Shown here: positions 33,580-52,490 of the stretch, piece after piece
How the letters are laid out: each line of letters starts with the position of its first letter
Numbering within the stretch: position 1 is the first letter of the stretch
Source: Bacteroidales bacterium
GTDB lineage: Bacteria > Bacteroidota > Bacteroidia > Bacteroidales > WCHB1-69
Assembly: GCA_017395245.1 (NCBI GenBank)
Contig: JAFPVR010000091.1
Span: 17,072 to 81,071 of the forward strand
Length of the DNA stretch: 64,000 nucleotides
Direction: 5' to 3'
Notes under the pieces: generated by a model
The model's database searches: none
Seen by the model: only the letters and a program-made list of their open reading frames with translations
Told to the model about the DNA's origin: nothing
Program-made: the position numbers and the translations under genes

Positions 33580-36500
33580 ATGGCAAAGGAAGTAAATAAA
33601 AGGGTTAACGTTTGGATTAACGGCAAAGAGGTTGAAAACAACATCAAATCGATCCGTTCCGCCATGATTCATCTGACTAATCAGATGAACAAAATGGAAA
33701 TCGGGTCTGAGGAGTACATCCAAACCTCAAAGAAACTGCGGGACTTGAAAACGATTTACGATGAACATTGTAAATCGTTAAAAATGACGAATCAGGAAAT
33801 CGAGAATAACACCACCTCTTGGAAAAAGAACATCATTCATTGGGGAGCATTCTCCGCCACCGTCCAAGGAGCCTCCGCCGCAGTTCAACGCTTTATCTCT
33901 TCCACCCAGGAGTACGTCGATGCCTATGCCTCACTCGATGACGCGATGAGTGCGGTACAGAAGACCACCGGCATGACTCGCGAGGAGGTGGAACTGCTGA
34001 AAAACTCTCTGCAGAGTATCGACACCCGCACCTCTACCGAGCAGCTGCTGAAGATCGCTGAAATCGGTGGCCGTATGGGGTTGGCAAAAGAAGAAATCCG
34101 CGATTTCACCGAAGCGGTCAACAAAGCCAACGTCGCCCTGGGCGATTCCTTCCAAGGAGGAGCGGAAGAAATATCCTCCATCCTCGGCAAAATCAGTCTC
34201 GCCTACAAGGAAACCCGCGACCAGAACATAGGACAGTCGATCACCCAGATTGGCTCAGCCCTGAATGAAGTTGGCGCGTCTGCCAATGCCACTGAAGGCA
34301 ATATCGCTTCCTTCGTGCAGCGCGTTGGCAGTATGCCGGAAATGTTCCGCCCAACCGTTGAACAAGCCATCGCCCTGGGTGCCGCGTTTGAGGAAAGTTC
34401 CATCGACGCGGAAGTGGCCAGTCGCGCATTCGGCATCGTGATGATGAAAGCCTCCACCAATGTGGAAGGTTTCGCTGCCGCCATGCACCGCCCTGCGGAA
34501 GAGATCGAGGAGTTAATCAATACCAATCCCGCACAATTCTTCGTGGAGTTTGCAGAATCGCTGAACGGGCTGAAGGGCACAGAGATCGGTTCTGTACTCA
34601 AAGATCTGAAGCTGAATGCCGACGGTGTAAACAAAATCATCGGTGCAATGAGTACCAACACCGAGCGTTTCACCGAAATACTTAACACGTCAAACACAGC
34701 CTTTGCAGAGGCCATATCGCTTGACAACGAGTATGCAGTTGTTAATGAGAATGCAGCCGCCCAATTGGAGAAAGCGAAGAAGGCCGTGCTGGATGCCAAA
34801 GCGGCACTGGGAGAGGAGCTGATTCCTGTAATCACGGAGTTGACCAAGGGGACAGCGTCAAGCATCAGAGTGTTGGGTGAAGTCGTGAAGTGGATGTTGG
34901 AACACAAGAATCTGATCAAGACGTTGGCCGCGGCATACGGTTTATTGTATGCCGCACACATGAAAGAGGTCGCGGCAAAAAAGCTGTCAACGGCTTGGAC
35001 AAAAGCGGAAATGGCCGGTGAGTCTGCCGGAACAGTTGTCACCAGTCTCTTTGCGTTGGCAAAGGCAAAGCTCGCCAAAAACACTCTGGCGGCCGCCAAT
35101 GCACAAAAGGCCTTGAAAGTCGCTTTTGCAGCCACTCCATGGGGAGCTATAATCACCGCTGTTCTAACACTGGCCACCGCATTTTCTTTCTTCCGCAGCA
35201 AAACAGATGAAGCGGCTGAAGCCCAGCAAAATTTGGAGGAACAGATCACTCAGCAGTACAATGCGGAGAAAAAGAAGGTGGAAGATCTTCAGAAGATCAT
35301 TGAGAACGAAAACTCCACCCGGGACCAGAAACTGAAAGCTATCAAGGAACTGAAAAAACTCATCCCCGATTATGTTGCAGAGTTGGACAAAGAAGGCAAG
35401 GTGGTGAACAATAACAAAAACGCCATCAACGATTACCTGGTTGCACTGAAAAACAAAATTCGATACCAAAGTCTTGAAAAAGCCCTGAACGAGACCCAGA
35501 ACAAGATAGTGGAAGCCGAACTGAAAGACAAAAAAGCCAGGGATGCCTATTTTGCCCAAGGATGGGGGGCTGAAGTCTGGGATAAGACGAAATCGTTCCT
35601 ATTTGGTGGATGGTCGAAAGAAGATGTGATGAAGAATGCAGATGCGGAGCTTCAGGGATTGTACGATCTCCGGGCTGAGTACAATAAGAAGATGGAGGTA
35701 ATGGATAAGGAGTTGAAGGATAAAACGGGGAAGACCTATCGTGAACTTTACAACGACAATTTACTGTCTTCACTGGACGAGAACAATCCACCGGGTTCTG
35801 GCTCCGGCTCCGGAAATGCACCAGACAAAAAAACGATCACCGCCCGCGAAAACTTCCACAAAGAGCTCCTGCAGATGGAAAACAAAGCGCAGGCCGATAC
35901 GCTCGAAGGATGGGAGAAAACCAAGCAGGAAATTGTCAACAAATACGATGAATTGCTTACAGAGGCCGCAAAACTCTACGGCAAGGATTCCGAAGCCTTC
36001 AATAAGGTGTTACAGATGAAATCGGACGCCATCACCGCCGCCGGACAAAAGTACCTTGAAAAGTACGGAAAAACCCTTGAAGATTTTTCCCAGAAATTTC
36101 AGACCTGGCAGAAAGAGACTGCCCCGGAAGGAAAGAACGAGATGGTGGATGCCGTCATCGGCACCCGGCAGAAGTGGATCCAACGCACCAACGAGGTCTC
36201 CGCACAAATGTCAGAACTGCTCGACCTGCGTGAACAGTTCGTGAAAGACAACGTTGACACCACCTCCCTCGACGCGCTCATCAACAAGCTCGGCGATGAG
36301 ATGAACGGCATGGCCGACATGGAGGCAAAGGACATCCAGAAGACCTTGGAGAAATACCAGGCGCAGACCGACGACTTCATCAAAGCGGAACAGAAATCCA
36401 TCACCGACGCCACCCTCACTGAAACCCAGCGGCAGAAAAACGCCATCCGGGAAAGATACGAGCTGGAAATCCAGCTCGTCGAGAAGCTGAAAGCCGCCCG

Positions 36501-37527
36501 AAAAGCTGAAGAGGGCGATGATGCCGATGTGTCGGATCTGGAATCCAAAATCAAAGAACTGAGGGAACTGCTCGACAAGCAGCTTGGCAACGTTGACAAG
36601 GCAGCCGCTTCCTCCGGACAGAAATCCGTCTGGCAGCAGCTCGCCGAGTTCGACTGGAGCAAGATGAGCGAGAACTGGCAGTCCGCACTCGGACTCATGA
36701 GCCAGGGACTGCAGGAGTTCGCCAGCGTCGCCTTCGACATCTACGGCTCCATCGCCCAGATCCAGGACAATATGATGGAGGCTGAGCTTCAGCGCACCCA
36801 GGAGGCTTACGACGCTAAGGCCGCCGCCCTCCAACGCCAGCTCGACCAGGGCGTAATCTCCCAAAAGGCATACGATGCCAAGATGCAGAAGCTCACTGAA
36901 GAAAAGGAGAAGAAGGAAAAGAAACTGAAACATGAGCAATTTGCCCGGGAAAAGGCGGCCAACATCATCCAGGCCCTCATCAACGGCGCACTGGCCATCA
37001 CCAACATCTGGGCGCAATGGGCTGGCCAGCCTATCGTGGCCGCCGTGCTCACCGCCGTGGCTGCCGCCTCCAACGCTGTGCAAATTGCAGCTATCGCCAC
37101 CCAGCCTAACCCCTACGCCAAAGGCGGCTACATCCGTGGACGGCAGTACGCCGTGATGGGCGAGCAGGGCGACGAGTGGGTGGCCAGCAACAAGCTGCTG
37201 CGTGACAAAGAGGCCTCAGCTGTCATCGCTGCCCTCGACGACTACCAGAAGGGCAACCGCAACGCCCTCGCTGGCATCTCATTCGCCGGGCCCGACCCAA
37301 AAATCATGTCCCAAGCCGTCTCCGGAAACGGACGTACTTTTGCACCGTCAAACCAGACCACCAACAACTACTACCAGAACCCGGACAACTCGGAACTGCT
37401 CAAGGAGATACGGAAGATGAACGACTTTCTGCGCGACCCCAACAACCGCCGCGCCTACATCAGCCGGAAGATCCAGTTAGAATTCGACGAACAGGAGGAG
37501 GAAATCAGGTCTATGGCGAGACTATAG
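33580..37527 (+). CDS. Tail tape measure protein
   Basis: 1315 aa, alpha-helical and coiled-coil rich with hydrophobic central segments. Position upstream of the distal tail genes. Confidence 0.85.
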   Translation: MAKEVNKRVNVWINGKEVENNIKSIRSAMIHLTNQMNKMEIGSEEYIQTSKKLRDLKTIYDEHCKSLKMTNQEIENNTTSWKKNIIHWGAFSATVQGASAAVQRFISSTQEYVDAYASLDDAMSAVQKTTGMTREEVELLKNSLQSIDTRTSTEQLLKIAEIGGRMGLAKEEIRDFTEAVNKANVALGDSFQGGAEEISSILGKISLAYKETRDQNIGQSITQIGSALNEVGASANATEGNIASFVQRVGSMPEMFRPTVEQAIALGAAFEESSIDAEVASRAFGIVMMKASTNVEGFAAAMHRPAEEIEELINTNPAQFFVEFAESLNGLKGTEIGSVLKDLKLNADGVNKIIGAMSTNTERFTEILNTSNTAFAEAISLDNEYAVVNENAAAQLEKAKKAVLDAKAALGEELIPVITELTKGTASSIRVLGEVVKWMLEHKNLIKTLAAAYGLLYAAHMKEVAAKKLSTAWTKAEMAGESAGTVVTSLFALAKAKLAKNTLAAANAQKALKVAFAATPWGAIITAVLTLATAFSFFRSKTDEAAEAQQNLEEQITQQYNAEKKKVEDLQKIIENENSTRDQKLKAIKELKKLIPDYVAELDKEGKVVNNNKNAINDYLVALKNKIRYQSLEKALNETQNKIVEAELKDKKARDAYFAQGWGAEVWDKTKSFLFGGWSKEDVMKNADAELQGLYDLRAEYNKKMEVMDKELKDKTGKTYRELYNDNLLSSLDENNPPGSGSGSGNAPDKKTITARENFHKELLQMENKAQADTLEGWEKTKQEIVNKYDELLTEAAKLYGKDSEAFNKVLQMKSDAITAAGQKYLEKYGKTLEDFSQKFQTWQKETAPEGKNEMVDAVIGTRQKWIQRTNEVSAQMSELLDLREQFVKDNVDTTSLDALINKLGDEMNGMADMEAKDIQKTLEKYQAQTDDFIKAEQKSITDATLTETQRQKNAIRERYELEIQLVEKLKAARKAEEGDDADVSDLESKIKELRELLDKQLGNVDKAAASSGQKSVWQQLAEFDWSKMSENWQSALGLMSQGLQEFASVAFDIYGSIAQIQDNMMEAELQRTQEAYDAKAAALQRQLDQGVISQKAYDAKMQKLTEEKEKKEKKLKHEQFAREKAANIIQALINGALAITNIWAQWAGQPIVAAVLTAVAAASNAVQIAAIATQPNPYAKGGYIRGRQYAVMGEQGDEWVASNKLLRDKEASAVIAALDDYQKGNRNALAGISFAGPDPKIMSQAVSGNGRTFAPSNQTTNNYYQNPDNSELLKEIRKMNDFLRDPNNRRAYISRKIQLEFDEQEEEIRSMARL

Positions 37528-40846: not shown

Positions 40847-42703
40847 ATGGCGAAGAAATTTTTGACGGACGTTGATCTGTCGCAAAACGAACTCCAGAAT
40901 GCGGTGATGCAGAACCTCACCACCGCCCCGCAGAACCCCAAGATGGGGCAGCTTTACTACAACACCTCCGACAAAATCATGTACCAGTGGGACGGCACCG
41001 CCTGGAAGCCGGTGGGCAACATCTACATCAACGGCAACGGCATCGTGATTTCCGCCTCCAACGTGGTGTCGGCGGATTTTGCAACCTCCGGCGAGGCCAC
41101 GGCCGGCAGCTCCACCACCAAGGTGATGTCGCCGGCACTGGTCAAGGCGGTGATCCAGACCCTCGACGTGACCGGCTTCGCGCAGGGCGTGGTGTCGGCC
41201 GACGGGGACACAATCACCATCAAGGGCCTGAAGGAGGTGGACGGCAAAGTGTCCGCCGACTCGAACAACAACCTGGTCATCAAGATAGATGCCGATCACG
41301 GCTACGATGCGACGGACAACCCGCTGGCCACTGTCGGCACGGTGGACGCGGCAAAGACAGCATCGGCTGTGACCGTGGAGGCAGGCGACGAAAGCGCGAC
41401 AAACTTCCGGTCGTACACCGTCAAGCAGGGCGGCAACACCGTGGGCACCATCAACATTCCGAAGTTCCTCGTGGTGAAAAGCGGCTCGGTGGTGACGGGT
41501 ACCTGGAGCGGCACAACGTTCAGCGAGGACGCCACGCAGCCGGGCAGCGGCACAGGCAAGGCCATCAAGCTGGTGCTCAACGACAGCGAGGATGCAGGCA
41601 CTGCGGACGACGTGCTCTATATCAATGTAGCCGACCTCGTGGATGTCTATACCGGCGGCGCTGGTATCACCATCACGGCTGGGAACGAAGTCAAGATGAA
41701 ACTCAAATCCGAAACCCCTCACACCGCATCGTCAGCCACTCCCACCAACACCGCCTCCCGACAATATCCTGTAGGCATCGACAAAGACGGTTTCCCGTCC
41801 GTCAATGTGCCCTGGACGGACACCACCTACACCCAGGAGAAACTGGGTCAAGGTTACGCAACCTGCTCCACGGCAGCAGCCACGGCGGCGAAGGAGGCTA
41901 CACTGCCGAACTATAACTTGGTCAAGGGCGGCGTGGTGGCCGTGAAATTCGAGAATGCCGTGCCCGCGAGCGCAACGTTGAACGTCAACTCCAAAGGGGC
42001 CAAGGACATCTACTTCAAGGGTGCGGCCATTACGGCGAACATCATCCAGGCAGGAGACACGGCCACGTTTATCTATGACGGATCGAAATACCATCTGCTC
42101 TCTGTTGACCGCCTCTGCCAAAAGGCTATCACCAATGTCTCATGGACGGCGGGCAGCCACGATGTGACATTGACCTTTGCCGACGGCACCACGTCTAACG
42201 TCACCATCCACCCCACGAACACGGCGTACCCGGCCTCGGGCAGCGGCGCGGCAGTGCCAACGAAGAACCAGACACCCGCATTCGGCCAGACTTTCAACGT
42301 GCCGCAGGTGGTGACAGACGATTTCGGGCACGTCACCGCCCAGAACACGCGAACAGTCACCATACCGGACGCGACGGCCACCCCGTCGGCGGACGGCCTC
42401 ATGTCGTCCGCCGACAAGGCCAAGCTCGACTCGATGACCCACATCATGCGCCGCTACGAGGTCACGAACCCCTCGCTGACGTACGACTCCGCGACGGGAA
42501 CCTGCGTGTGGCAGATTGCGGCCTCCTCGATGGGCGGCGGCGACCCGCGCCATGCGCTCTGCTCGCTGCGCGACAGTTCCGGCAATGAGGTGATTGCCGA
42601 CATGACCTTCTCGCAGCAGTACATCACCGTCACGTTCAACGCCAGCGCCACGATTGCGGCAGGGGCCTACACCGCCAACATCATCATCCCGATAGCCGCA
42701 TAG
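40847..42703 (+). CDS. Tail fibre protein
   Basis: N-terminus MAKKFLTDVDLSQNELQNAVMQNLTTAPQNPKMGQLYYNT...WDGTAWKPVG is typical of phage tail fibres. Confidence 0.6.
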   Translation: MAKKFLTDVDLSQNELQNAVMQNLTTAPQNPKMGQLYYNTSDKIMYQWDGTAWKPVGNIYINGNGIVISASNVVSADFATSGEATAGSSTTKVMSPALVKAVIQTLDVTGFAQGVVSADGDTITIKGLKEVDGKVSADSNNNLVIKIDADHGYDATDNPLATVGTVDAAKTASAVTVEAGDESATNFRSYTVKQGGNTVGTINIPKFLVVKSGSVVTGTWSGTTFSEDATQPGSGTGKAIKLVLNDSEDAGTADDVLYINVADLVDVYTGGAGITITAGNEVKMKLKSETPHTASSATPTNTASRQYPVGIDKDGFPSVNVPWTDTTYTQEKLGQGYATCSTAAATAAKEATLPNYNLVKGGVVAVKFENAVPASATLNVNSKGAKDIYFKGAAITANIIQAGDTATFIYDGSKYHLLSVDRLCQKAITNVSWTAGSHDVTLTFADGTTSNVTIHPTNTAYPASGSGAAVPTKNQTPAFGQTFNVPQVVTDDFGHVTAQNTRTVTIPDATATPSADGLMSSADKAKLDSMTHIMRRYEVTNPSLTYDSATGTCVWQIAASSMGGGDPRHALCSLRDSSGNEVIADMTFSQQYITVTFNASATIAAGAYTANIIIPIAA

Positions 42704-42705
42704 CG

Positions 42706-43359
42706 ATGAGACATCTCAACGACCAGTACTTCAGCGGAAACCAGCTCAAAGAGGTGGCCGAACCGTCCGTGGCGACGGATGCGGCCACCAAGGGCTACGT
42801 GGACGGTATTGTGGAGGGACTGGTGTCGCCGGGCGTGACGTTCTATGGCTACACCGACACGCCTGCCGCAACGGCCAACAAGGTTGTGACGCTCATTGCG
42901 CCGACGGACGGGTTTGCCAACGGAAGCAAACTGCTGCTGCACTTCAACAATGCCGTGCCTGCAGGAAACTCCAACATCATAACGGTAGCGGGCAACCAAT
43001 ATATGTTGGCATACCACCAGGCCGCCATAACAACGGCTGGCATTATAAATGCAGGGGATAAAGCTCTTATTGTATGCTTCAACAGTGTTGCCCACGTCGT
43101 CGCCATCGACCGCTGGGGCGTTGACATGTCCGCCGCGCAGGGCACGCTGCCCGCGCTGGCAGGCAATGCCGGGAGGGTCCTCGCCGTTAACAACGGCGAA
43201 ACGGGTGTCGAATGGGTGCCGATGGGCGGCAGCGGCGCGAGCCAGCTCGCCGTCACAGATGATGACAACGGCAACATCGGGCTGTCGCTCACTGGCGGTT
43301 CGCAGTCACTGTCTGTCGTGGATGACAACAACGGAAATATCACCTTAACCTTAAATTAG
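42706..43359 (+). CDS. Tail fibre-like protein
   Basis: ...LKEVAEPSVATDAATKGYVDG... collar motif. Confidence 0.55.
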   Translation: MRHLNDQYFSGNQLKEVAEPSVATDAATKGYVDGIVEGLVSPGVTFYGYTDTPAATANKVVTLIAPTDGFANGSKLLLHFNNAVPAGNSNIITVAGNQYMLAYHQAAITTAGIINAGDKALIVCFNSVAHVVAIDRWGVDMSAAQGTLPALAGNAGRVLAVNNGETGVEWVPMGGSGASQLAVTDDDNGNIGLSLTGGSQSLSVVDDNNGNITLTLN

Positions 43360-43365
43360 ACGATT

Positions 43366-43776
43366 ATGGCAAGTACTGAAATGAAAAGCCTGACGCTCGG
43401 CGGCGTGACGCGCACATTGCATGACGCGGTTGCCCGCGCCATCACCCATACAGCCAACACCACCGTCAGCACCTCGACGACCACCATCACCTTCACGGCG
43501 GACCAACGGTGCTCGAAAATGATCACCGTCAGTGCGGACCTCGGTGTCACATTCGCCGTGAACAACACCACCGACAACTACCTGTGGATAAAGAACACGG
43601 GCAGCGCGGAGGTGGACATCACCGTCAGCGCGGTCACGTCGAGCGGCAACAATGTGGCCAACGTATATATGCCGGCCGACGGCATCAGCATCCCTGCAGG
43701 GAAAGTAGTGGAAATCGGCATCATTGTGAACGCCGACGGTGCGTTCATCACATCAAGAAACGATTTAGCATTGTAA
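43366..43776 (+). CDS. Hypothetical tail-associated protein
   Basis: ORF only. Confidence 0.4.
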   Translation: MASTEMKSLTLGGVTRTLHDAVARAITHTANTTVSTSTTTITFTADQRCSKMITVSADLGVTFAVNNTTDNYLWIKNTGSAEVDITVSAVTSSGNNVANVYMPADGISIPAGKVVEIGIIVNADGAFITSRNDLAL

Positions 43777-43779
43777 GCA

Positions 43780-44301
43780 ATGGCAAAGACAACAGACAAC
43801 GAGCAATACTACTATTTCAAGATGCGGATCGGAAAGCCGTACGAAATCAAGGCCACGCCCATCCACATCAACACGGTCATCAACCGCATCTATGTGGAGA
43901 TGACTGCCGCGCAGCAGGCCTTCTATTTGGAGAACCCCACGGCCACGGTGCAGGAGGTGTGGAACTGCGCACTTACACCGCCGTATACGCCGCCGGCCCC
44001 CGACGTGGCGGAATACGCGGCGCGGAAGGTGGAAGAGCTGCGGGAGGCGTGCCACAGCGCCGTGGGAGTCACGACACTGGAATTCGCCATGGCCATCGAC
44101 AAAGTTGAGAATCCCACGGCAAGCTGCTACTACGGCCTTGCCGATGCGCAGCGTGTTGTCAGCGCCTTCCGCGCCCAGAGCAAGGCCGCGATGGCGGTGC
44201 TCGACACGTACCGCCCGCAGATTGAGGCGGCGGCGAGTGTGGCGGCAGTGGATGCGCTGCTCGCGGCGGCGAGGGCCGCGCTGGAAGGAGGTGCGGCATG
44301 A
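43780..44301 (+). CDS. Hypothetical tail-associated protein
   Basis: ORF only. Confidence 0.4.
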   Translation: MAKTTDNEQYYYFKMRIGKPYEIKATPIHINTVINRIYVEMTAAQQAFYLENPTATVQEVWNCALTPPYTPPAPDVAEYAARKVEELREACHSAVGVTTLEFAMAIDKVENPTASCYYGLADAQRVVSAFRAQSKAAMAVLDTYRPQIEAAASVAAVDALLAAARAALEGGAA

Positions 44302-44477
44302 CAGCGGCCTTAGACATCAGGATGCTTGTGGCCACCGCCGCGAAGGCACTGGCGGTGGCCGCGCTGATAACCGCCGGTGCAATGGCGTTGCAACGGGGTT
44401 CCACGCACGTTTCAACGGCGGTCCGCGACACATGGGCGGCCGACAGCAGCTGGACGGTGAAAGGAGGATGGAGATGA
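44298..44477 (+). CDS. Small membrane protein (59 aa, below the ORF-track cutoff)
   Basis: ATGA-coupled ATG at 44298 with GGAAGGAGG upstream. Sequence MTAALDIRMLVATAAKALAVAALITAGAMAL... Confidence 0.4.
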   Translation: MTAALDIRMLVATAAKALAVAALITAGAMALQRGSTHVSTAVRDTWAADSSWTVKGGWR

Positions 44478-44649
44478 GACGGGAACACAATATTTCAATA
44501 CAGGTGTAAAGCCAAACCCTAATTTTAAATGGTATTATGTTTTCCAATGGCTGGATTTAAACAGCGGTGATAGCAATTTTAATGGTTGCGAAGATTGGAG
44601 CTCTACTTCAACGGATATTATCATTAGAATTGCACAAAGGCCTGACATT
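44461..44649 (+). pseudogene. Start-less fragment of a receptor-binding cassette, open in frame with the next ORF
   Basis: Translates to ..ETGTQYFNTGVKPNPNFKWYYVFQWLDLNSGDSNFNGCEDW.., which aligns to residues ~30-80 of ORF 45342 (SQGNQFIITGVCLGPNLKWELDAQWVEFNDNNAFGYEEW). Confidence 0.5.
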
Positions 44650-45306
44650 ATGAGAAAAGAACATTTAAACACTGTTTCAGAGGATATACCGTTCGTCGAG
44701 AATCTTATTTTCCATACTCCGCTGACTGAAGGAGATTTGACGGACCATGTGAGCGGGGTGTCGCCAACACCCGGCACAGGCGGCTGTACGTGGGATTCCG
44801 CGTACGACGCATATCGAATCTTCACCACAGCCGAGTACCAGCATTGCTTGATATATAACATTCCCGACGGCATAGATTTCAAGTCATCGGAAAACTACAA
44901 CTTTTCAATTTACACAAAGATTTTCATCAATTCTTACAATGGCACGATTGACTATGCAATATTGTATGACGGCATCAACTGGCCGACCAGTAATAATTCA
45001 TACAGTATTGGTGAAACGCACAGGTACAACACATCGACGGACAACCCAATAACAAAGAATGCCTGGCATGAGATATGTATGGCAAGATATGAAGACAATA
45101 TATTTTTTTATGTTGACAAAGCATTGTCAAGAACCACGCAAACATCGCAATACCCTGCATTTAATATTTCCGACGCCGTTGCAAAGAATAAACACAAGAA
45201 TCTTGCAGTCGGGACTTCAATATACAATTACAAATTCAACATATACATCAAAGATCTTCGTATATACGATAGAGCGTTGTCGGCTTCAGAGATTGTGCAG
45301 TTGTAA
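44650..45306 (+). CDS. LamG/concanavalin-like receptor-binding cassette 1 (low GC)
   Basis: C-terminal ...IYIKDLRIYDRALSASEIVQL is typical of LamG-type domains. Confidence 0.5.
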   Translation: MRKEHLNTVSEDIPFVENLIFHTPLTEGDLTDHVSGVSPTPGTGGCTWDSAYDAYRIFTTAEYQHCLIYNIPDGIDFKSSENYNFSIYTKIFINSYNGTIDYAILYDGINWPTSNNSYSIGETHRYNTSTDNPITKNAWHEICMARYEDNIFFYVDKALSRTTQTSQYPAFNISDAVAKNKHKNLAVGTSIYNYKFNIYIKDLRIYDRALSASEIVQL

Positions 45307-45341
45307 AGCAAAGGGTATTACATTAACCAATATCTGCTAAT

Positions 45342-45989
45342 ATGAAAAGAGAAAGTTTAAATTCAGAGGCGTCTCCAAACCAGCTCCCCCTGCCATCTGG
45401 ATATACCAAGTTGAACTACATAGAAAGCCAGGGAAACCAGTTTATCATCACGGGTGTTTGTTTGGGGCCGAACCTTAAGTGGGAGCTTGATGCTCAGTGG
45501 GTTGAATTCAATGATAACAATGCTTTTGGATATGAAGAATGGAATCAAGGTGCTGCGAACACAAGAGTTGTATGCCGTTTAAATTTTACTAAGAGCAAAA
45601 CTTTAAGCATTGTATATGGAAACATTCCGGCAACAGATCCGAATGGCTTTAAGCAATATAATTTACCTGGCGCCGATGCGACTGTCAGGCATGTTTTATA
45701 TGTGGAAAGCGGGAAACAGTGCATCGACGGTGTCGAAGTCATGCAAGCAATAATGACTTACACGAGCACCGGTTATATAATGTTTTTCGAAAGCGGTTTT
45801 GCGAACGGAAGCGGTGCTTATATATGTAAAAAGACCAGAGTTTATGGTTCGTGGATGAAAAACGGAGACACACTTGTCAGAAATTTTGTGCCTGCACTCA
45901 GGCTATCCGATAGCAAGCCCGGCTTGTACGATACGGTCAATGATGTGTTTCATACCAACGCAGGAACCGGGGAATTTTTATACGCATAA
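45342..45989 (+). CDS. Receptor-binding cassette of the 'LPxGY..L.YIES.G.Q.I.TG' family (low GC)
   Basis: LPLPSGYTKLNYIESQGNQFIITGV... Confidence 0.5.
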   Translation: MKRESLNSEASPNQLPLPSGYTKLNYIESQGNQFIITGVCLGPNLKWELDAQWVEFNDNNAFGYEEWNQGAANTRVVCRLNFTKSKTLSIVYGNIPATDPNGFKQYNLPGADATVRHVLYVESGKQCIDGVEVMQAIMTYTSTGYIMFFESGFANGSGAYICKKTRVYGSWMKNGDTLVRNFVPALRLSDSKPGLYDTVNDVFHTNAGTGEFLYA

Positions 45990-45991
45990 AT

Positions 45992-46690
45992 ATGAGGAGA
46001 CAGCAATTCAAATCTGAACAGTCGTACATCGACTGGTTGAAGTCCAAGGGGTGCCGGTTCTACGCCCCCATGGACGAGGAGCACGGCACTGACGAGCTGA
46101 TACAGGGCTGGACATTCAGCGTCAACAATGGGTGCTCGTGTGTTTGGGATTCTAACAAGAGAGCACACTTGATAACAGGCAGCAGCTCATCATCGAAGGC
46201 TTCCGCCATGTGGAGCGGAAAAAGCATACAATCGCAAAACGTCGGAGAAATGGCTATCAATACCCAGCATGTTCTTCTTTGTGATTTTAATCTAACTTCT
46301 TCTGGTAGTTGGACTCCTGGTGCTAGCTACGGAGGCAGTGATGATTATACTACGAACATATCGGGCACGTCATCATCAAGAAATGTGCTTTGCGCCAGTC
46401 AAAAAGAATTCTATACCAGAAACGGTAAGTCGTTTTCTTATAATATTTGGTATACTTATTTTCAATGGTATAACAAAAGCAACAGTAGAAGATGCGATAT
46501 AACAGCGCAAGGGATTACACTTCTTGAGGCTGATTCTAACCCAAGCTGGACTTTTGTCTACAATCAGAATTGCGACACGCATGTGAGCTTGATGGCTGGC
46601 TGCTCGGGCTATGTTCGCAACTTGTACATCTTCGCCACGGCATTGAGCGATGAGGACATTATGACGATTTACCGCCACGATCACCAATAA
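45992..46690 (+). CDS. LamG/concanavalin-like receptor-binding cassette 2 (low GC)
   Basis: C-terminal ...YVRNLYIFATALSDEDIMTIY. Shares C(T/V)WDS with cassette 1. Confidence 0.5.
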   Translation: MRRQQFKSEQSYIDWLKSKGCRFYAPMDEEHGTDELIQGWTFSVNNGCSCVWDSNKRAHLITGSSSSSKASAMWSGKSIQSQNVGEMAINTQHVLLCDFNLTSSGSWTPGASYGGSDDYTTNISGTSSSRNVLCASQKEFYTRNGKSFSYNIWYTYFQWYNKSNSRRCDITAQGITLLEADSNPSWTFVYNQNCDTHVSLMAGCSGYVRNLYIFATALSDEDIMTIYRHDHQ

Positions 46691-46693
46691 ACT

Positions 46694-49021
46694 ATGATTA
46701 GAATATACGTCAAAGGCCAGCAGCTCGCTCTGAAGCGCGACACCACGCTCACGGTGGAACTCAATAACGCCCTGTTCGCCTCGCCGGATATTGAGGGAGA
46801 CATCTCGTTTAGCTTCGGTCTGCCTGTTGAGGGAAACGAGCAGATGCTTGGCTTCGCAAACCTCCCACAAATAGGTAGTATGAAAAAGACGCCCTGCCTC
46901 GTGTGGTGCAACAACAGCCAGAACTGGGCCGGGGAACTGGTGGTCCAGAAAACCGGGCACGACAACATCTCTGCTGCGTTGGTCATCAACCCCTATCCAG
47001 AAGGGTTCTCCGGACGCAGCCTCACAGCCAACGAGGACGCCGACATTGTGATTTCCGAAAGCAAAGAGACGCACAACGCCGCGTGGGAAGAGTTTTTGAA
47101 GGCCTCGGTGAATGACCCTGATGTGAAGTTTGCTCCGTTCATCAACGAGGATGGCTATGGAAGCGAGAACGAAGACTTTGGCCGCTGGAATGGGATACAA
47201 AGGACGAAGGTGGTGAACTCACTGTTCTTCACCGATGCAGGTACACTTCTGGACACGATTTCACATCCATTCTCGAAAGCGCACAACGAGCTGCTCGACG
47301 TTAGTGTTATCGACACAGTGGACACCGACGGTAAACCTTCTTATTCCGAATATACGGAAATGAACCAGCTGGCCTTCTGTCCGCAGATCCGCATCGCCCG
47401 CATATTGTCGTTATGGTGCCGGAACGCAGGCTATACGTTCATCGACCACCTTGGTGATGACCTGTCCGGAACATTCCTGCAGTCGCAGAAATCTCTGGAC
47501 GGCACGTCAGCGCAATATGATACGGATTCCACAGATCGCATTAGTGGCTATTCTGAAGGATATGCGACGGACATCCAGAACTGGCAGTGGTACTTCAGTT
47601 TGATTCCTGAAGAAGGATCTGAGGCGTATATCAATAATGCTACAGTTTCCATACAGGAAACGGGGTGGTGGATGTTTCGAATCACAGCGGACTACCGCTC
47701 AATCGCCTATCAAATACAGAGGTATTTCAGCATAGGCTACCGCGCCTGGCTCGCCATCTATCAAGGATTTGATAAGCTGTATGAGTATTATATCGGAACT
47801 TTGCCCACCAAAAACTTCAAGGTGGATTTGGAATGGAAACAATATGTGTCGGATATCTGGACGGCCGCCCCGTTCAGAATCGCCATATATTTCAAAGATG
47901 GGCAAAACACGAGTTATTACCTTAGAGAATCCCTCAAAACAAATCAGCCGTCCATACCAATGACGGTTGACATACGTAAAATTTCAGCTGACCAGGTGCA
48001 GTCGGGTTTCAACATTTTCCGCAGCAAGTTCCGGATTCCGGAACTACTCCCGGAGGTGACCAACGCCTCGTTCCTGAAGACTCTGCTCGAAACCATGGGG
48101 TTGTGCTTCTTCGTGTCCGGGAAGCAGAAGACCATCGAGGTTGTTCCGTATAGCAGGATAAGCAATGCCAAGTCTTTGGATCTGACACCTTACGAACTCA
48201 CGCGTGAAACCGAGACAATCTCGCCGGATGAGACGAAGCGGACATTCCGGCTCAAACCGCTGAAAGACGAAGACTACAACAAGGGTTTGAGGATTGATGA
48301 CGTTGCCGTCAAACTCCCTGACCCGTATGCAAACCACGAGCACTATGTCCTGCGCACCAAGACGAACACCCTGTACCACGCTTCAAAGCAGGAGGGTGCT
48401 GTCGAAAACTGGGTGGAAGGATGGGAGGAATACAGCGGCAACCCCGACAGGCTGGAGGTCGGCAGCGGGGACGAAGAGAACAGGGAACCGTCGGTGGCCA
48501 TCCCGCACCAGCGACTGTTCAGCACAAACCGCCGCCATCCCGACACAGATATCATCTCTGGCGAGACACCGCAGCTCATGGTGGCCGACTTCACCATCAG
48601 CAGCGACCTTTACAACACAACGGAAAAAACATCCGCCATCATTCTGACCCAATACCGTGGATTCCGATTGCGGCAGTACGGAGCCAGTGCCACCGAAATC
48701 AAGAACGAAGTGATGCTGCCGGTCTGGGGTGACGATTTCGCATTGAAGGCAAAAGGGGCCAACTCCATCGGCGAGAAGTATGTGAAACCCGTGCTGGAAT
48801 TGCTCGGCCATAAGACAGTAACCTACAAGTTTCGGCTTCCGACCGCCATGATACAGCAGGTAGAGGACCTCCTTCGCCCGTCGGAGCTCGACCCGGGAAT
48901 GCAGACGCGGTTCCTGATCGTGAGAAATGTGAAGACGGTGCCGAAAAGAATCACCTTCCAGATAGACAACGACATTGATGACACAGTGCTGTGTCAGATT
49001 GAGACGGTGAAGGTGTATTAG
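46694..49021 (+). CDS. Large tail/baseplate structural protein
   Basis: 775-aa ORF at the end of the tail module. Confidence 0.5.
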   Translation: MIRIYVKGQQLALKRDTTLTVELNNALFASPDIEGDISFSFGLPVEGNEQMLGFANLPQIGSMKKTPCLVWCNNSQNWAGELVVQKTGHDNISAALVINPYPEGFSGRSLTANEDADIVISESKETHNAAWEEFLKASVNDPDVKFAPFINEDGYGSENEDFGRWNGIQRTKVVNSLFFTDAGTLLDTISHPFSKAHNELLDVSVIDTVDTDGKPSYSEYTEMNQLAFCPQIRIARILSLWCRNAGYTFIDHLGDDLSGTFLQSQKSLDGTSAQYDTDSTDRISGYSEGYATDIQNWQWYFSLIPEEGSEAYINNATVSIQETGWWMFRITADYRSIAYQIQRYFSIGYRAWLAIYQGFDKLYEYYIGTLPTKNFKVDLEWKQYVSDIWTAAPFRIAIYFKDGQNTSYYLRESLKTNQPSIPMTVDIRKISADQVQSGFNIFRSKFRIPELLPEVTNASFLKTLLETMGLCFFVSGKQKTIEVVPYSRISNAKSLDLTPYELTRETETISPDETKRTFRLKPLKDEDYNKGLRIDDVAVKLPDPYANHEHYVLRTKTNTLYHASKQEGAVENWVEGWEEYSGNPDRLEVGSGDEENREPSVAIPHQRLFSTNRRHPDTDIISGETPQLMVADFTISSDLYNTTEKTSAIILTQYRGFRLRQYGASATEIKNEVMLPVWGDDFALKAKGANSIGEKYVKPVLELLGHKTVTYKFRLPTAMIQQVEDLLRPSELDPGMQTRFLIVRNVKTVPKRITFQIDNDIDDTVLCQIETVKVY

Positions 49022-50136
49022 AATTGGATGGTATTCCACTCTAATATCTTCTTCGCATTCGATCTGTGAGTGTATTTTTCTGTCATTTCTAACGAACTGT
49101 GATCAGCTAGTTCCTTAACAAGCTTGGCGGGTACGCCCGCCTCCAACATTTCGGTGATTCCAGTATCCTTCAAGGAATAAAACTGGTACGACGAAGGCAG
49201 CCCAAGCGCATCGCGCATTTCCTTCCAACGCTCGGCGACACGGGTCGGGGCAGTGTACTTCGGCCCAGGGGCGTATGTATTTCGGTCAGAGAAGACATAC
49301 CATTGGGACGGCAAGCCGCGCAACGTCCTGAAATACTCCATGATTTCCTCCGGAACACCGATAATCCTGTCACAGTGGTTTTTAGCGACAAAAGACGGAA
49401 TCTTCAGCATACATTGGTCGAAGTCAATGTACCCTACCCTGATCATCATGATTTCCTTCGGACGGATTAGCAGACGATAGCACAACAGCATTACATATAT
49501 ATATAAAGGTGTACGCTCATCGAACCATGCACGGATATCCTTCCTGACCGACGGAGGTATAACGACCCTTATCTTCCTGTCCACCTTGCGTTTCGGAAGG
49601 TCTTCGGCGGGATTTTCCTTGATGTAGCCGCGCTGCACAAAGAAATCGAACAGCGTGTACAGATAAGAAGAGTAGTTGTTGTAACTGCGATTGCTGAGAT
49701 TGACATGCAAGTCAGTGTATTCGAGATAGCGGAGGAGATGGTCGCGATCGATCTGGAAGCAATAGATATGGTCGAGATGCTGCTTCTTCAGATAATCCAG
49801 GAACAACTGCGAGAAAGACCTGTATGATTTCATGGTGGCGGGCCTCAATATCTTCTCTTTTGCATCGAGAAACTTCTGGATGCACTGCGACACGCTGAGC
49901 GCCCTGGCGGCCAACGCCTCGACAAACGGGTTCCAACCACCCCAAAGTTTCTCGTTGATCTTGTGGCAAAGGGATTTCGCGTACCTGTCGCGGTCGGAAG
50001 ACTTCCTCACATGGTTGACACGGTATTTAACGCGCTGCAGCTTTCCCGTCTCCGGATTGAGCGCATAGTAGTAGACAAAGCAATCTTTGCCCTTGTGGTA
50101 AGCGCACGGCTTGAAATCGATGAATGGAGTGGACAT
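49018..50136 (-). CDS. Tyrosine-type site-specific integrase
   Basis: C-terminal catalytic region ...LKDTGITEMLEAGVPAKLVKELADHSSLEMTEKYTH. Adjacent to a tRNA and an att repeat. Confidence 0.9.
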   Translation of the reverse strand: MSTPFIDFKPCAYHKGKDCFVYYYALNPETGKLQRVKYRVNHVRKSSDRDRYAKSLCHKINEKLWGGWNPFVEALAARALSVSQCIQKFLDAKEKILRPATMKSYRSFSQLFLDYLKKQHLDHIYCFQIDRDHLLRYLEYTDLHVNLSNRSYNNYSSYLYTLFDFFVQRGYIKENPAEDLPKRKVDRKIRVVIPPSVRKDIRAWFDERTPLYIYVMLLCYRLLIRPKEIMMIRVGYIDFDQCMLKIPSFVAKNHCDRIIGVPEEIMEYFRTLRGLPSQWYVFSDRNTYAPGPKYTAPTRVAERWKEMRDALGLPSSYQFYSLKDTGITEMLEAGVPAKLVKELADHSSLEMTEKYTHRSNAKKILEWNTIQF

Positions 50137-50261
50137 ATTTTTTTTTCCTTTCTATGTTTTTTGCGCATTGGAAAGGAAGTGTGAATTGTATCGGTATTGT
50201 ATCAGTAAAATTGCCGAAAACCATCTAAACAAATGATTTTCAGCAATTTACATTTTCTTAG

Positions 50262-50333
<72 letters not shown>

Positions 50334-50525
50334 ATGTTTCAGGCCGCAAAAATACACTTTTTTCTTTTTTCCGACACATTCTGCAGAAAAAAAATTTTCA
50401 TATCAAAATTTTTGTATCTTTGCCACCCCAATTGAAAGAGGCTCTTCAATTGAATTACAAGTAGTTAACCTCATTGTTTAATCTTAAAAAAGCCCCAGTC
50501 TCAGGGCAAATTGAGACAACAATTT

Positions 50526-52490
50526 ATGTCAGAAGAATTACTGAACACTCCTGAACAGGTCGAAGAAATCGCGCAAAACGTGGAAAATGTTGCCGAAACC
50601 GTGACGGAAAACGTGGTTGAGGAAGCCACCGCCGCTGCCGAAGAGGCCATGCCCGAAACCGAAGAGGCTCCCAAAGCCCCCAAGGGTCCCCGCAAAATGC
50701 GCGAGATCGAGAACCCCTACGCCAATGCGCTCGAAAACTTCAGCTGGGACAAGGTCTCCGACCAGAACGACCGCTACTCCAAAGACGAGCAAGCACGCCT
50801 CGAGGAAGCCTATTCCAAGTCCTTCAAGTCCATCGAGCAGGGTGATGTCATCACCGGCAAGGTGGTCTCCATCAACGACCGCGAAGTGGTCCTCAACATC
50901 GGCTTCAAGTCCGACGGCGTCATCAACGCTTCCGAACTCCGCTACAACCGCGACCTCAAGATCGGCGACGAAGTGGAAGTCTATGTCGAAAGCCAGGAAG
51001 ATGCCAACGGTCAGATGCAGCTCTCTCACAAGCGCGCCCTCATCCTCAAGTCATGGCAGCGCGTCAACGAGGCCTACGACAACCAGGAGGTCATCACCGG
51101 CTACGTGAAAGGCAAGACCAAAGGCGGTCTCATCGTGGACGTCTTCGGTATCGAGGCCTTCCTGCCCGGTTCCCAAATCGACGTCAAGCAAATTCGCGAC
51201 TTCGACGTCTATGTTGGCAAGACCATGGAGTTCAAGGTCGTCAAGATCAACCACGACTATAAGAACGTGGTCGTCTCCCACAAGGCCCTCATTGAGGCTG
51301 AAATCGAAGCCCAGAAGGCCGAAATCATCAGCCGCCTCGAAGTCGGCCAAATCCTCGAAGGTACGGTCAAGAACATCGTTTCTTACGGTGCGTTCGTCGA
51401 TCTCGGCGGTCTGGACGGTCTCATCCACATCACCGACCTCTCTTGGGGCCGCATCAGCCACCCCTCCGAGGTTGTTCAACTCGACCAGAAGGTCAACGTC
51501 GTCATCCTCAACTTCGAGGAAGGCAAGAAACGTATCGCCCTGGGTCTCAAGCAGCTCACCCCGCAACCGTGGGAGAAGCTCGATCCGGATCTCAAGGTCG
51601 GCGACAAAGTCAAGGGCAAAGTGGTGGTCATCACCGACTACGGTGCCTTTGTGGAGGTCATCCCCGGCGTGGAAGGCCTTATCCATGTCTCCGAAATGTC
51701 CTGGTCGCAGCACCTGCGCACCGCCCACGACTTCCTCAAGGTCGGCGACGAGATTGAAGCCGTTGTGCTCACTCTCGACCGCGAAGGCCAGAAGATGTCT
51801 CTGGGTCTCAAGCAGCTCATCCCCGATCCGTGGGCTGGCATCCTTGAGAAATATCCTGTCGGCTCCCGCCACACCGCCACTGTCCGCAACTTCACCACGT
51901 TCGGCATCTTCGTCGAACTGGAAGAGGGCGTTGACGGCCTTATCCACATCTCCGACCTCTCTTGGAACAAGAAGATCAAACACCCCGCCGAGTTCACCAA
52001 GGTGGGTGAGTCCATCGAAGTGGTCGTCCTCGAAGTGGACACCGAGAACCGCCGCCTGAGCTTGGGTCACAAGCAGTTGGAGGAGAACCCGTGGGATGTC
52101 TACGAGACCATCTTCACCATCGGCTCTGTGCACGAGGGTACCATCACCGGCATGACCGACAAGGGTGCCACCGTGATGCTCCCGCACAACATCGAAGGCT
52201 TTGCTTTCAACCGTCATCTGGTGAAAGAGGACAAATCCACTGCCAAGGAAGGCGAAACCCTCCCGTTCATGGTGGTTGATTTCTCCAAGGACGCCAAGAA
52301 GATCCACCTCTCCCACACCAAGACGTGGCAACCCGACCGCGACAGCGAGGATCGTGCCCGCAACGAGGAGGAGAGACAGAAAGAGCGCGATATTCAGAAA
52401 GTGAACGAGAGCAACGTCGAAAAGGCGACCCTCGGCGACTTGAACATCCTGCAATCTCTGAAGGAAGACCTCGAGAAAGAAGGCAAGTAA
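50526..52490 (+). CDS. rpsA: 30S ribosomal protein S1
   Basis: Six repeated S1 domains (e.g. GDVITGKVVSI, GQILEGTVKNIVSYGAFVDLGG..DGLIHITD). A TATCTTTG box lies upstream. Confidence 0.95.
   Translation: MSEELLNTPEQVEEIAQNVENVAETVTENVVEEATAAAEEAMPETEEAPKAPKGPRKMREIENPYANALENFSWDKVSDQNDRYSKDEQARLEEAYSKSFKSIEQGDVITGKVVSINDREVVLNIGFKSDGVINASELRYNRDLKIGDEVEVYVESQEDANGQMQLSHKRALILKSWQRVNEAYDNQEVITGYVKGKTKGGLIVDVFGIEAFLPGSQIDVKQIRDFDVYVGKTMEFKVVKINHDYKNVVVSHKALIEAEIEAQKAEIISRLEVGQILEGTVKNIVSYGAFVDLGGLDGLIHITDLSWGRISHPSEVVQLDQKVNVVILNFEEGKKRIALGLKQLTPQPWEKLDPDLKVGDKVKGKVVVITDYGAFVEVIPGVEGLIHVSEMSWSQHLRTAHDFLKVGDEIEAVVLTLDREGQKMSLGLKQLIPDPWAGILEKYPVGSRHTATVRNFTTFGIFVELEEGVDGLIHISDLSWNKKIKHPAEFTKVGESIEVVVLEVDTENRRLSLGHKQLEENPWDVYETIFTIGSVHEGTITGMTDKGATVMLPHNIEGFAFNRHLVKEDKSTAKEGETLPFMVVDFSKDAKKIHLSHTKTWQPDRDSEDRARNEEERQKERDIQKVNESNVEKATLGDLNILQSLKEDLEKEGK

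Follow-up and report, generated by a model that had tools for sequence, protein, structure and literature searches.

A start-less gene fragment in a prophage cassette array of a Bacteroidales bacterium is probably the relic of a gene broken by two deletions

The window analyzed here, a stretch of 64,000 nucleotides (contig C79, positions 17072-81071) from a draft Bacteroidales genome of 129 contigs, contains the right end of a prophage. Between the small gene p59 and the gene for the conserved protein p775 lie three intact small genes, LamG1, B and LamG2, which we call cassettes, and ahead of them lies a short coding fragment that lacks a start codon and whose origin is the main subject of this report (Table 1). 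The stop-to-stop frame at 44461-45306 comprises 281 codons, and the earliest ATG, GTG or TTG within it is the LamG1 start at 44650. Its first 63 codons (44461-44649) are open, contain none of these three start codons and run continuously in frame into LamG1. A frame scan thus agreed with the preliminary description of the locus, and BLASTP bore out the further statement that the 63-codon stretch resembles the N-terminal third of ORF 45342 (B), with 35% identity to residues 28-80 at an E value of 2e-8. A six-frame search of the whole genome found no paralogue beyond this match (E value 1.8e-5).

Table 1. Features at the right end of the prophage (window coordinates). B' is the gene from which the fragment derives, and L029 is a contig carrying its intact allele (see text).
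Feature	Coordinates	Strand	Description
Tape-measure gene	33580-37527
Fibre-type genes downstream of the tape-measure gene	40847; 42706; 43366		Gene at 40847: 618 aa
p173 gene	Between the fibre-type genes and p59 (43780-44477 together with p59)		173 aa
p59	44298-44477	+	59 aa; last GC-rich gene ahead of the array
Original start of the destroyed B'	44474-44509	+	Now an 11-codon open frame, MRREHNISIQV and stop
B' relic	44479-44649	+	57 codons
Deletion 1 junction	44482-44494	+	73 nt lost relative to L029
Deletion 2 junction	44640-44645	+	385 nt lost relative to L029
LamG1	44650-45306	+	218 aa; intact Laminin_G_3 (ConA-like lectin fold) cassette
B	45342-45989	+	215 aa; LPxGY..YIESxGxQ...GLYDxVxxxFYTNxGTGxF family
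LamG2	45992-46690	+	232 aa; remote LamG1 homologue
p775	46694-49021	+	Conserved 775-aa protein bounding the variable array
Tyrosine integrase	49018-50136	-	Prophage end; Pfam Phage_integrase, E 1.1e-13; PHROG 1, E 3.6e-36

When the 281-codon open frame was searched against 5.8 billion proteins, a complete protein of 209 amino acids (P0004) was found that starts with MRREHDIM and is 93% identical to the fragment (E value 3.8e-29). The contig encoding this protein, L029, and nine further contigs, counting the more diverged L030, carry the intact form of the array. L029 and L031-L038 are 95-99% identical to the window at the nucleotide level and have the gene order p59-B'-LamG1-B-LamG2, B' being the gene for the 209-residue protein, and L030 likewise has p59, a 209-residue B', LamG1, B and LamG2. 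The piece of B' remaining in the window is 98.8% identical over 164 nt to L029, L030 and L031, and approximately 53-55 of its 57 codons correspond to residues 29-81 of the intact protein. Comparison of the window with L029, using blastn, an alignment and an endpoint script, revealed two gaps and no more, one of 73 and one of 385 nt, and at each junction the window sequence matches both flanks of the deletion.

The first deletion removed B' codons ~6-28 and is flanked by imperfect direct repeats of about 14 nt, GGGAACAYRATATT. Window positions 44482-44494 align to positions 235-247 of L029 and also to positions 308-320; the repeats in L029 read GGGAACATGATATT and GGGACACAATATT, and the two arms in L030 share CACAATAT exactly. 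The second deletion removed codons 82-209 and the stop codon, that is, the 128 C-terminal codons of B', at the microhomology GCCTGA/GCCTAA, where the left arm is AGGCCTGAT, the right arm is ATGCCTAAC and the window has AGGCCTGAC.

The TGA stop of p59 overlaps the ATG of the next gene as ATGA, and in the window this ATG, at 44474, is preceded by AAAGGAGGA. Because the same ATGA junction opens the following gene in L029, in L030 and in G001, a related prophage from the same genus, we take the ATG at 44474 to be the original start of B'. The intact alleles begin at this ATG, with MRREHDIM in L029 and L031 and MRREHNIM in L030; the frame that it opens in the window now reads MRREHNISIQV and meets a stop at 44509. 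In the intact allele, the TAA stop of B' lies 4 nt ahead of the LamG1 ATG and in a different frame. Since 73 leaves a remainder of one when divided by three, the surviving B' codons were placed in the -1 frame relative to the ATG at 44474, and since 385 leaves the same remainder, the relic was brought into the frame of LamG1. What the preliminary description had presented as a start-less cassette fragment fused in frame thus follows from the arithmetic of two deletions.

From these data, 44479-44649 is very probably what remains of B' after two deletions recently turned it into a pseudogene, and this relic is most likely untranslated. The ancestor of this prophage would have had four small cassette genes after p59, namely B', LamG1, B and LamG2. 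Parts of the first of these would have been lost in two deletions between short direct repeats, by replication slippage or by microhomology-mediated deletion, either of which would fit the deletion signature, leaving ~53 codons that are out of frame with their start and, by accident, in frame with LamG1. The LamG1 ATG at 44650 would have been left untouched, so that LamG1, B and LamG2 stay intact, and the relic itself is most likely silent. An intact orthologue is found at the same position in close relatives, and the lesions that disabled the gene can be specified. Loss of B' is tolerated, as LamG1 follows p59 directly, with no B', in the relatives L044-L047.

Deletion between short direct repeats, whether by replication slippage or mediated by microhomology, is a classical route of pseudogene decay in bacteria and prophages. 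The B' relic shares with such cases its two deletions at short imperfect direct repeats with one copy kept, deletion lengths that are not multiples of three and an intact allele in close relatives. Nothing essential differs, the one oddity being that two frame shifts together leave an open relic in the frame of the following gene. The suggestion that the fragment is a recombination scar stands in part, in that it derives from an intact four-cassette array, but it arose by two internal deletions and not from a cassette-exchange junction at the GC shift.

The drop in base composition that had been placed at about 44478 was confirmed there, the GC content at third codon positions (GC3) falling from approximately 0.75 to 0.32-0.53. 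In the fibre genes GC3 is 0.72-0.82, in the start-less stretch 0.32, in the three small genes 0.44-0.53 and in p775 0.67. This shift marks the original border of p59 with the first cassette and is seen also in the intact allele L030; the rearrangement behind the fragment did not create it, contrary to the proposal that a recombination junction falls exactly on it.

Certain points weigh against the interpretation of the fragment as a silent deletion relic. L029 and L030 differ at the positions of the ancestral repeats. Judged from the sequence, initiation at the CTG at 44551 or at the ATT and ATC codons in 44617-44647 may occur. The other contigs with the deleted allele may share their study of origin with the source genome, and a mixture of alleles within the sample or a consistent assembler error could in principle account for that allele.

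We considered whether the relic could be expressed as an N-terminal extension of LamG1, either by non-canonical initiation, as the preliminary description had offered, or by a -1 frameshift from the ATG at 44474. The product would be a chimera of 275-281 residues that joins ...TQYFNTGVKPNPNFK... to ...RPDIMRKEHLNTV... in one peptide chain. No stop interrupts the frame between 44461 and LamG1, just one frame separates it from the coupled ATG at 44474 and near-cognate codons occur in it, but CTG, ATT and ATC are the only possible starts in the relic frame and all are weak. A programmed -1 ribosomal frameshift was rejected, as no X_XXY_YYZ heptamer precedes the stop in the 36-nt frame 44474-44509. 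In addition, the in-frame state follows from the deletion lengths of 73 and 385 nt, and no database protein was found that combines such an architecture with a start codon, the 281-residue query matching only separate B' and LamG proteins. The relic covers about 4-5 of the 16 strands of a single-domain fold in the AlphaFold model of B, or about one quarter of a one-domain beta-sandwich, and is predicted from the model to be unable to fold alone, while the conserved MRKEH N-terminus of LamG1 would be buried in the chimera. Expression of such an extension is thus very unlikely.

An equally improbable alternative is that the deletions are assembly artefacts and that the true genome has an intact B'. 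The genome is a draft in 129 contigs, and three contigs from other samples start within 44636-44682, which hints at local branching of the assembly graph. Against this, window positions 43000-49690 (6,691 nt), both junctions included, recur with 100% identity in L039, a 29-kb scaffold of another assembly. A look-up reported 17 more places where most of the neighbouring genes are the same, and LamG2 is present in identical form in 22 contigs in all. Gene calls in the contigs with the deleted allele show the same 172-nt gap and a LamG1 of 218 aa. Repeats of 6-14 nt should also be too short to be collapsed in k-mer assembly. The doubly deleted allele is therefore probably not an assembly artefact. 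A 28-mer spanning the second junction was absent from IMG/VR and from JGI metagenome contigs. No allele with only one of the two deletions was found, the search with the 281-residue query included.

Mixtures of strains may lie behind the contig breaks at 44636-44682. One of the three contigs concerned, L040, matches the window at 99.96% identity from 44654 on and joins it at 44653/44654; its positions 1-81 are unrelated bases that replace everything through the fourth base of LamG1 and that were not found in the source genome.

Least credible is a reading of the array as an actively switching system (an invertible shufflon, a diversity-generating retroelement (DGR) or programmed cassette exchange) with the start-less piece as a silent donor or acceptor cassette: the locus varies in content among relatives, a tyrosine recombinase gene lies 2.3 kb downstream and all cassettes share an M[RK][RK][EQT] start, but the longest inverted or direct repeat in 43000-50600 measures 37 nt, at 60-70% identity, all cassettes are oriented alike on the + strand, the recombinase is the prophage's conserved integrase, which p775 accompanies in all relatives, and the shared start differs in its codons, which indicates that it is conserved at the protein level rather than as a crossover site in the DNA. 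A shufflon or Mu G-type segment was rejected on the lack of significant inverted repeats in 43000-50600 and on the common + orientation of the cassettes, and a DGR target on the lack of a repeat pair of the TR/VR type in the same interval, although a reverse transcriptase was not searched for. The Mu G and P1 C segments and the shufflons resemble this locus in having alternative receptor-binding segments at the end of a tail operon, and their start-less variable part, which can be joined to a constant part, recalls the start-less piece described here. They differ in that the present locus has no inverted repeats and no invertase, its genes are co-oriented and its start-less piece is a deletion product.

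Comparison of related prophages showed that the locus varies by presence and absence of cassettes and is neither invariant nor uniform in composition, as the preliminary description had expected. Besides the four-cassette form (L029-L038, L030 among them), a form p59-LamG1-B-LamG2 without B' was found in L044-L047, in which the p59 stop overlaps the LamG1 start. A single B gene follows the p173 homologue in L048. G001 has a LamG1-like gene, a LamG2-like gene, p59 and then an unrelated 245-aa gene ahead of p775, G008 has one unrelated 212-aa gene and G004 has no cassette. Because several relatives have LamG1-B-LamG2 without B', the latter looks like an optional extra cassette. Identity is also mosaic, L030 being 98% identical to the window over the first 280 nt of LamG1 and far less beyond. 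The proteins of B' and B are 44% identical, with the last 141 nt of the genes at 76% nucleotide identity.

The order fragment-LamG-B-LamG had been read as a tandem duplication or a cassette exchange. A B'-LamG1-B-LamG2 array is real, but a "duplicated two-gene unit" is too strong a description of it, and a recent duplication of such a unit is not supported by pairwise alignment of LamG1 with LamG2, which gave a remote similarity only (BLASTP E value 0.027). Profiles built from the homologues of each protein could be aligned by hhalign over 204 columns (probability 96.8%, E value 2.2e-10). Since the relation is shown by profiles and the pairwise E value is 0.027, LamG2 diverged from LamG1 long ago and is not a copy made recently.

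LamG1, to which P0001 is 99% identical, matches the Pfam family PF13385 (Laminin_G_3) with an E value of 8.1e-10 and 39.5 bits, above the gathering threshold of 27.6, in accord with its earlier designation as LamG-like. The same designation of ORF 45992 (LamG2) is supported by the profile-profile alignment to the LamG1 family but not by a Pfam match. No model in Pfam, PHROGs or NCBIfam matches B, B' or LamG2, and a sequence search of the PDB gave nothing useful for B or LamG2. The AF2 model of LamG2 has a pLDDT of 69.8, and the PDB entries that match it best contain jelly-roll domains resembling lectins, at a TM score of ~0.5. For B, an AlphaFold model from a 48-sequence alignment (pLDDT 90.6, pTM 0.87) consists of one all-beta domain of 16 strands, which Foldseek matched to LG/LNS domains, CBM40, CBM66 and galectins with a probability of 1.0 and E values of ~3e-4 at PDB TM scores of only 0.41-0.46, so that in the model the likeness of B to PDB entries is a resemblance of fold class and not family membership. 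Uncharacterised gut siphovirus proteins matched the B model with a TM score of 0.71. A relation of B to LamG by sequence was rejected (hhalign of B against LamG1, probability 20%). All three intact cassettes are predicted to be ConA-like lectin-fold proteins, and a carbohydrate-binding role at the tail tip is their most likely function, putatively as virion-borne accessory proteins.

The family to which B belongs is very large. B matches 10,816 representative clusters (50% identity) at an E value of 1e-3 or below, and the module, of ~200 aa, carries the motif LPxGYxxLxYIESTGTQYIDTG ... PALRxSDxKPGLYDxVxxxFYTNxGTGxF (P0007-P0155). It occurs as free genes, in tandem arrays and in up to 14 matched stretches within one protein; P0012, for example, consists of four tandem modules in 809 aa. 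Listeria-Bacteroides repeats are present in some proteins of the family, and others have the N-terminal methylation motif of pilins. In IMG/VR phages, longer proteins encoded beside fibre genes end in B modules, and in L001, L005 and L006 they are fused to fibre-like proteins. A full-text literature search for the motif strings returned no paper, and a keyword search nothing specific.

Every cassette at this locus starts with M-[RK]-[RK]-[EQT]-x (44474, 44650, 45342 and 45992, as well as L024, L025, L030, L044 and L047). This start is shared, with differing codons, by five barely related families, those of B, LamG1, LamG2, the 245-aa gene of G001 and the 212-aa gene of G008. Among 49 plus-strand ORFs of the prophage, just three have it, which are the cassettes, and the first 10 residues are disordered in the B model. 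The shared N-terminus may be a docking or initiation tag. It is tempting to speculate, although we regard it as rather unlikely, that B and the LamG cassettes are interchangeable lectin heads that all dock at a single shared site of the tail tip by means of a short disordered M-R-R-[EQ]-x N-terminus.

Distal tails of siphophages are known to carry accessory carbohydrate-binding modules (CBMs), such as the BppA type of lactococcal phages, and lambdoid side fibres can end in LamG domains. The present cassettes are similar in that they encode small proteins of predicted lectin fold immediately downstream of the tail-fibre genes and are highly variable and mosaic; LamG1 passes the Laminin_G_3 threshold, and B modules are fused to fibre-like proteins in other phages. 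They are different in being free-standing genes for ~210-230 aa proteins, three or four of which make up the array and each of which has an MRR[EQ]x N-terminus, and in including a B family that has no curated model.

The cassettes are probably transcribed with the tail genes as part of the last late operon. The last phage late-promoter box is at 37307, and no convincing terminator was found inside the array. No internal Bacteroidota -7 box (TAnnTTTG) was found in 42940-46197, and an internal promoter of the Bacteroidota type for the array was rejected on this ground.

Of the genes flanking the array, p59 has a hydrophobic stretch that, read by eye, resembles one membrane helix. Its orthologues, at 75-100% identity, are found in L030, L031, L044 and L047, where the first cassette is always directly next. 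The p173 protein has no family match and its gene is always ahead of the cassette array, with a B gene directly 3' of it in L048 (4501-5004); it could be an assembly factor for fibres or cassettes. No match to p775 was found in Pfam, PHROGs or NCBIfam, and a PDB sequence search gave nothing useful. The p775 and integrase genes are convergent, their 3' ends overlapping by 4 nt in the window (46694-50136), and this pairing was seen at every paralogue examined (L050-L053, L024-L028), including three more in the source genome. In L044 and L047, contigs of related phages that share the tail genes, neither p775 nor the integrase follows the array. Phage GenBank records gave no blastn match for 43300-47000.

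The phenomenon described here amounts to a commonplace pseudogene relic, and the hypervariable phage locus that contains it is of a known kind. For annotation, this means that 44461-44649 is to be labeled a pseudogene remnant and that the start of LamG1 is at 44650. The relic is a clean example of a phage host-range locus shedding a cassette through two microhomology deletions while the intact allele is still circulating. If the docking idea were true, it would explain both the N-terminus common to five families and how cassettes can be gained and lost without breaking the virion. The B family is a very large module, of predicted lectin fold, of gut and rumen phages and of bacterial surface proteins, and merits definition as a family.

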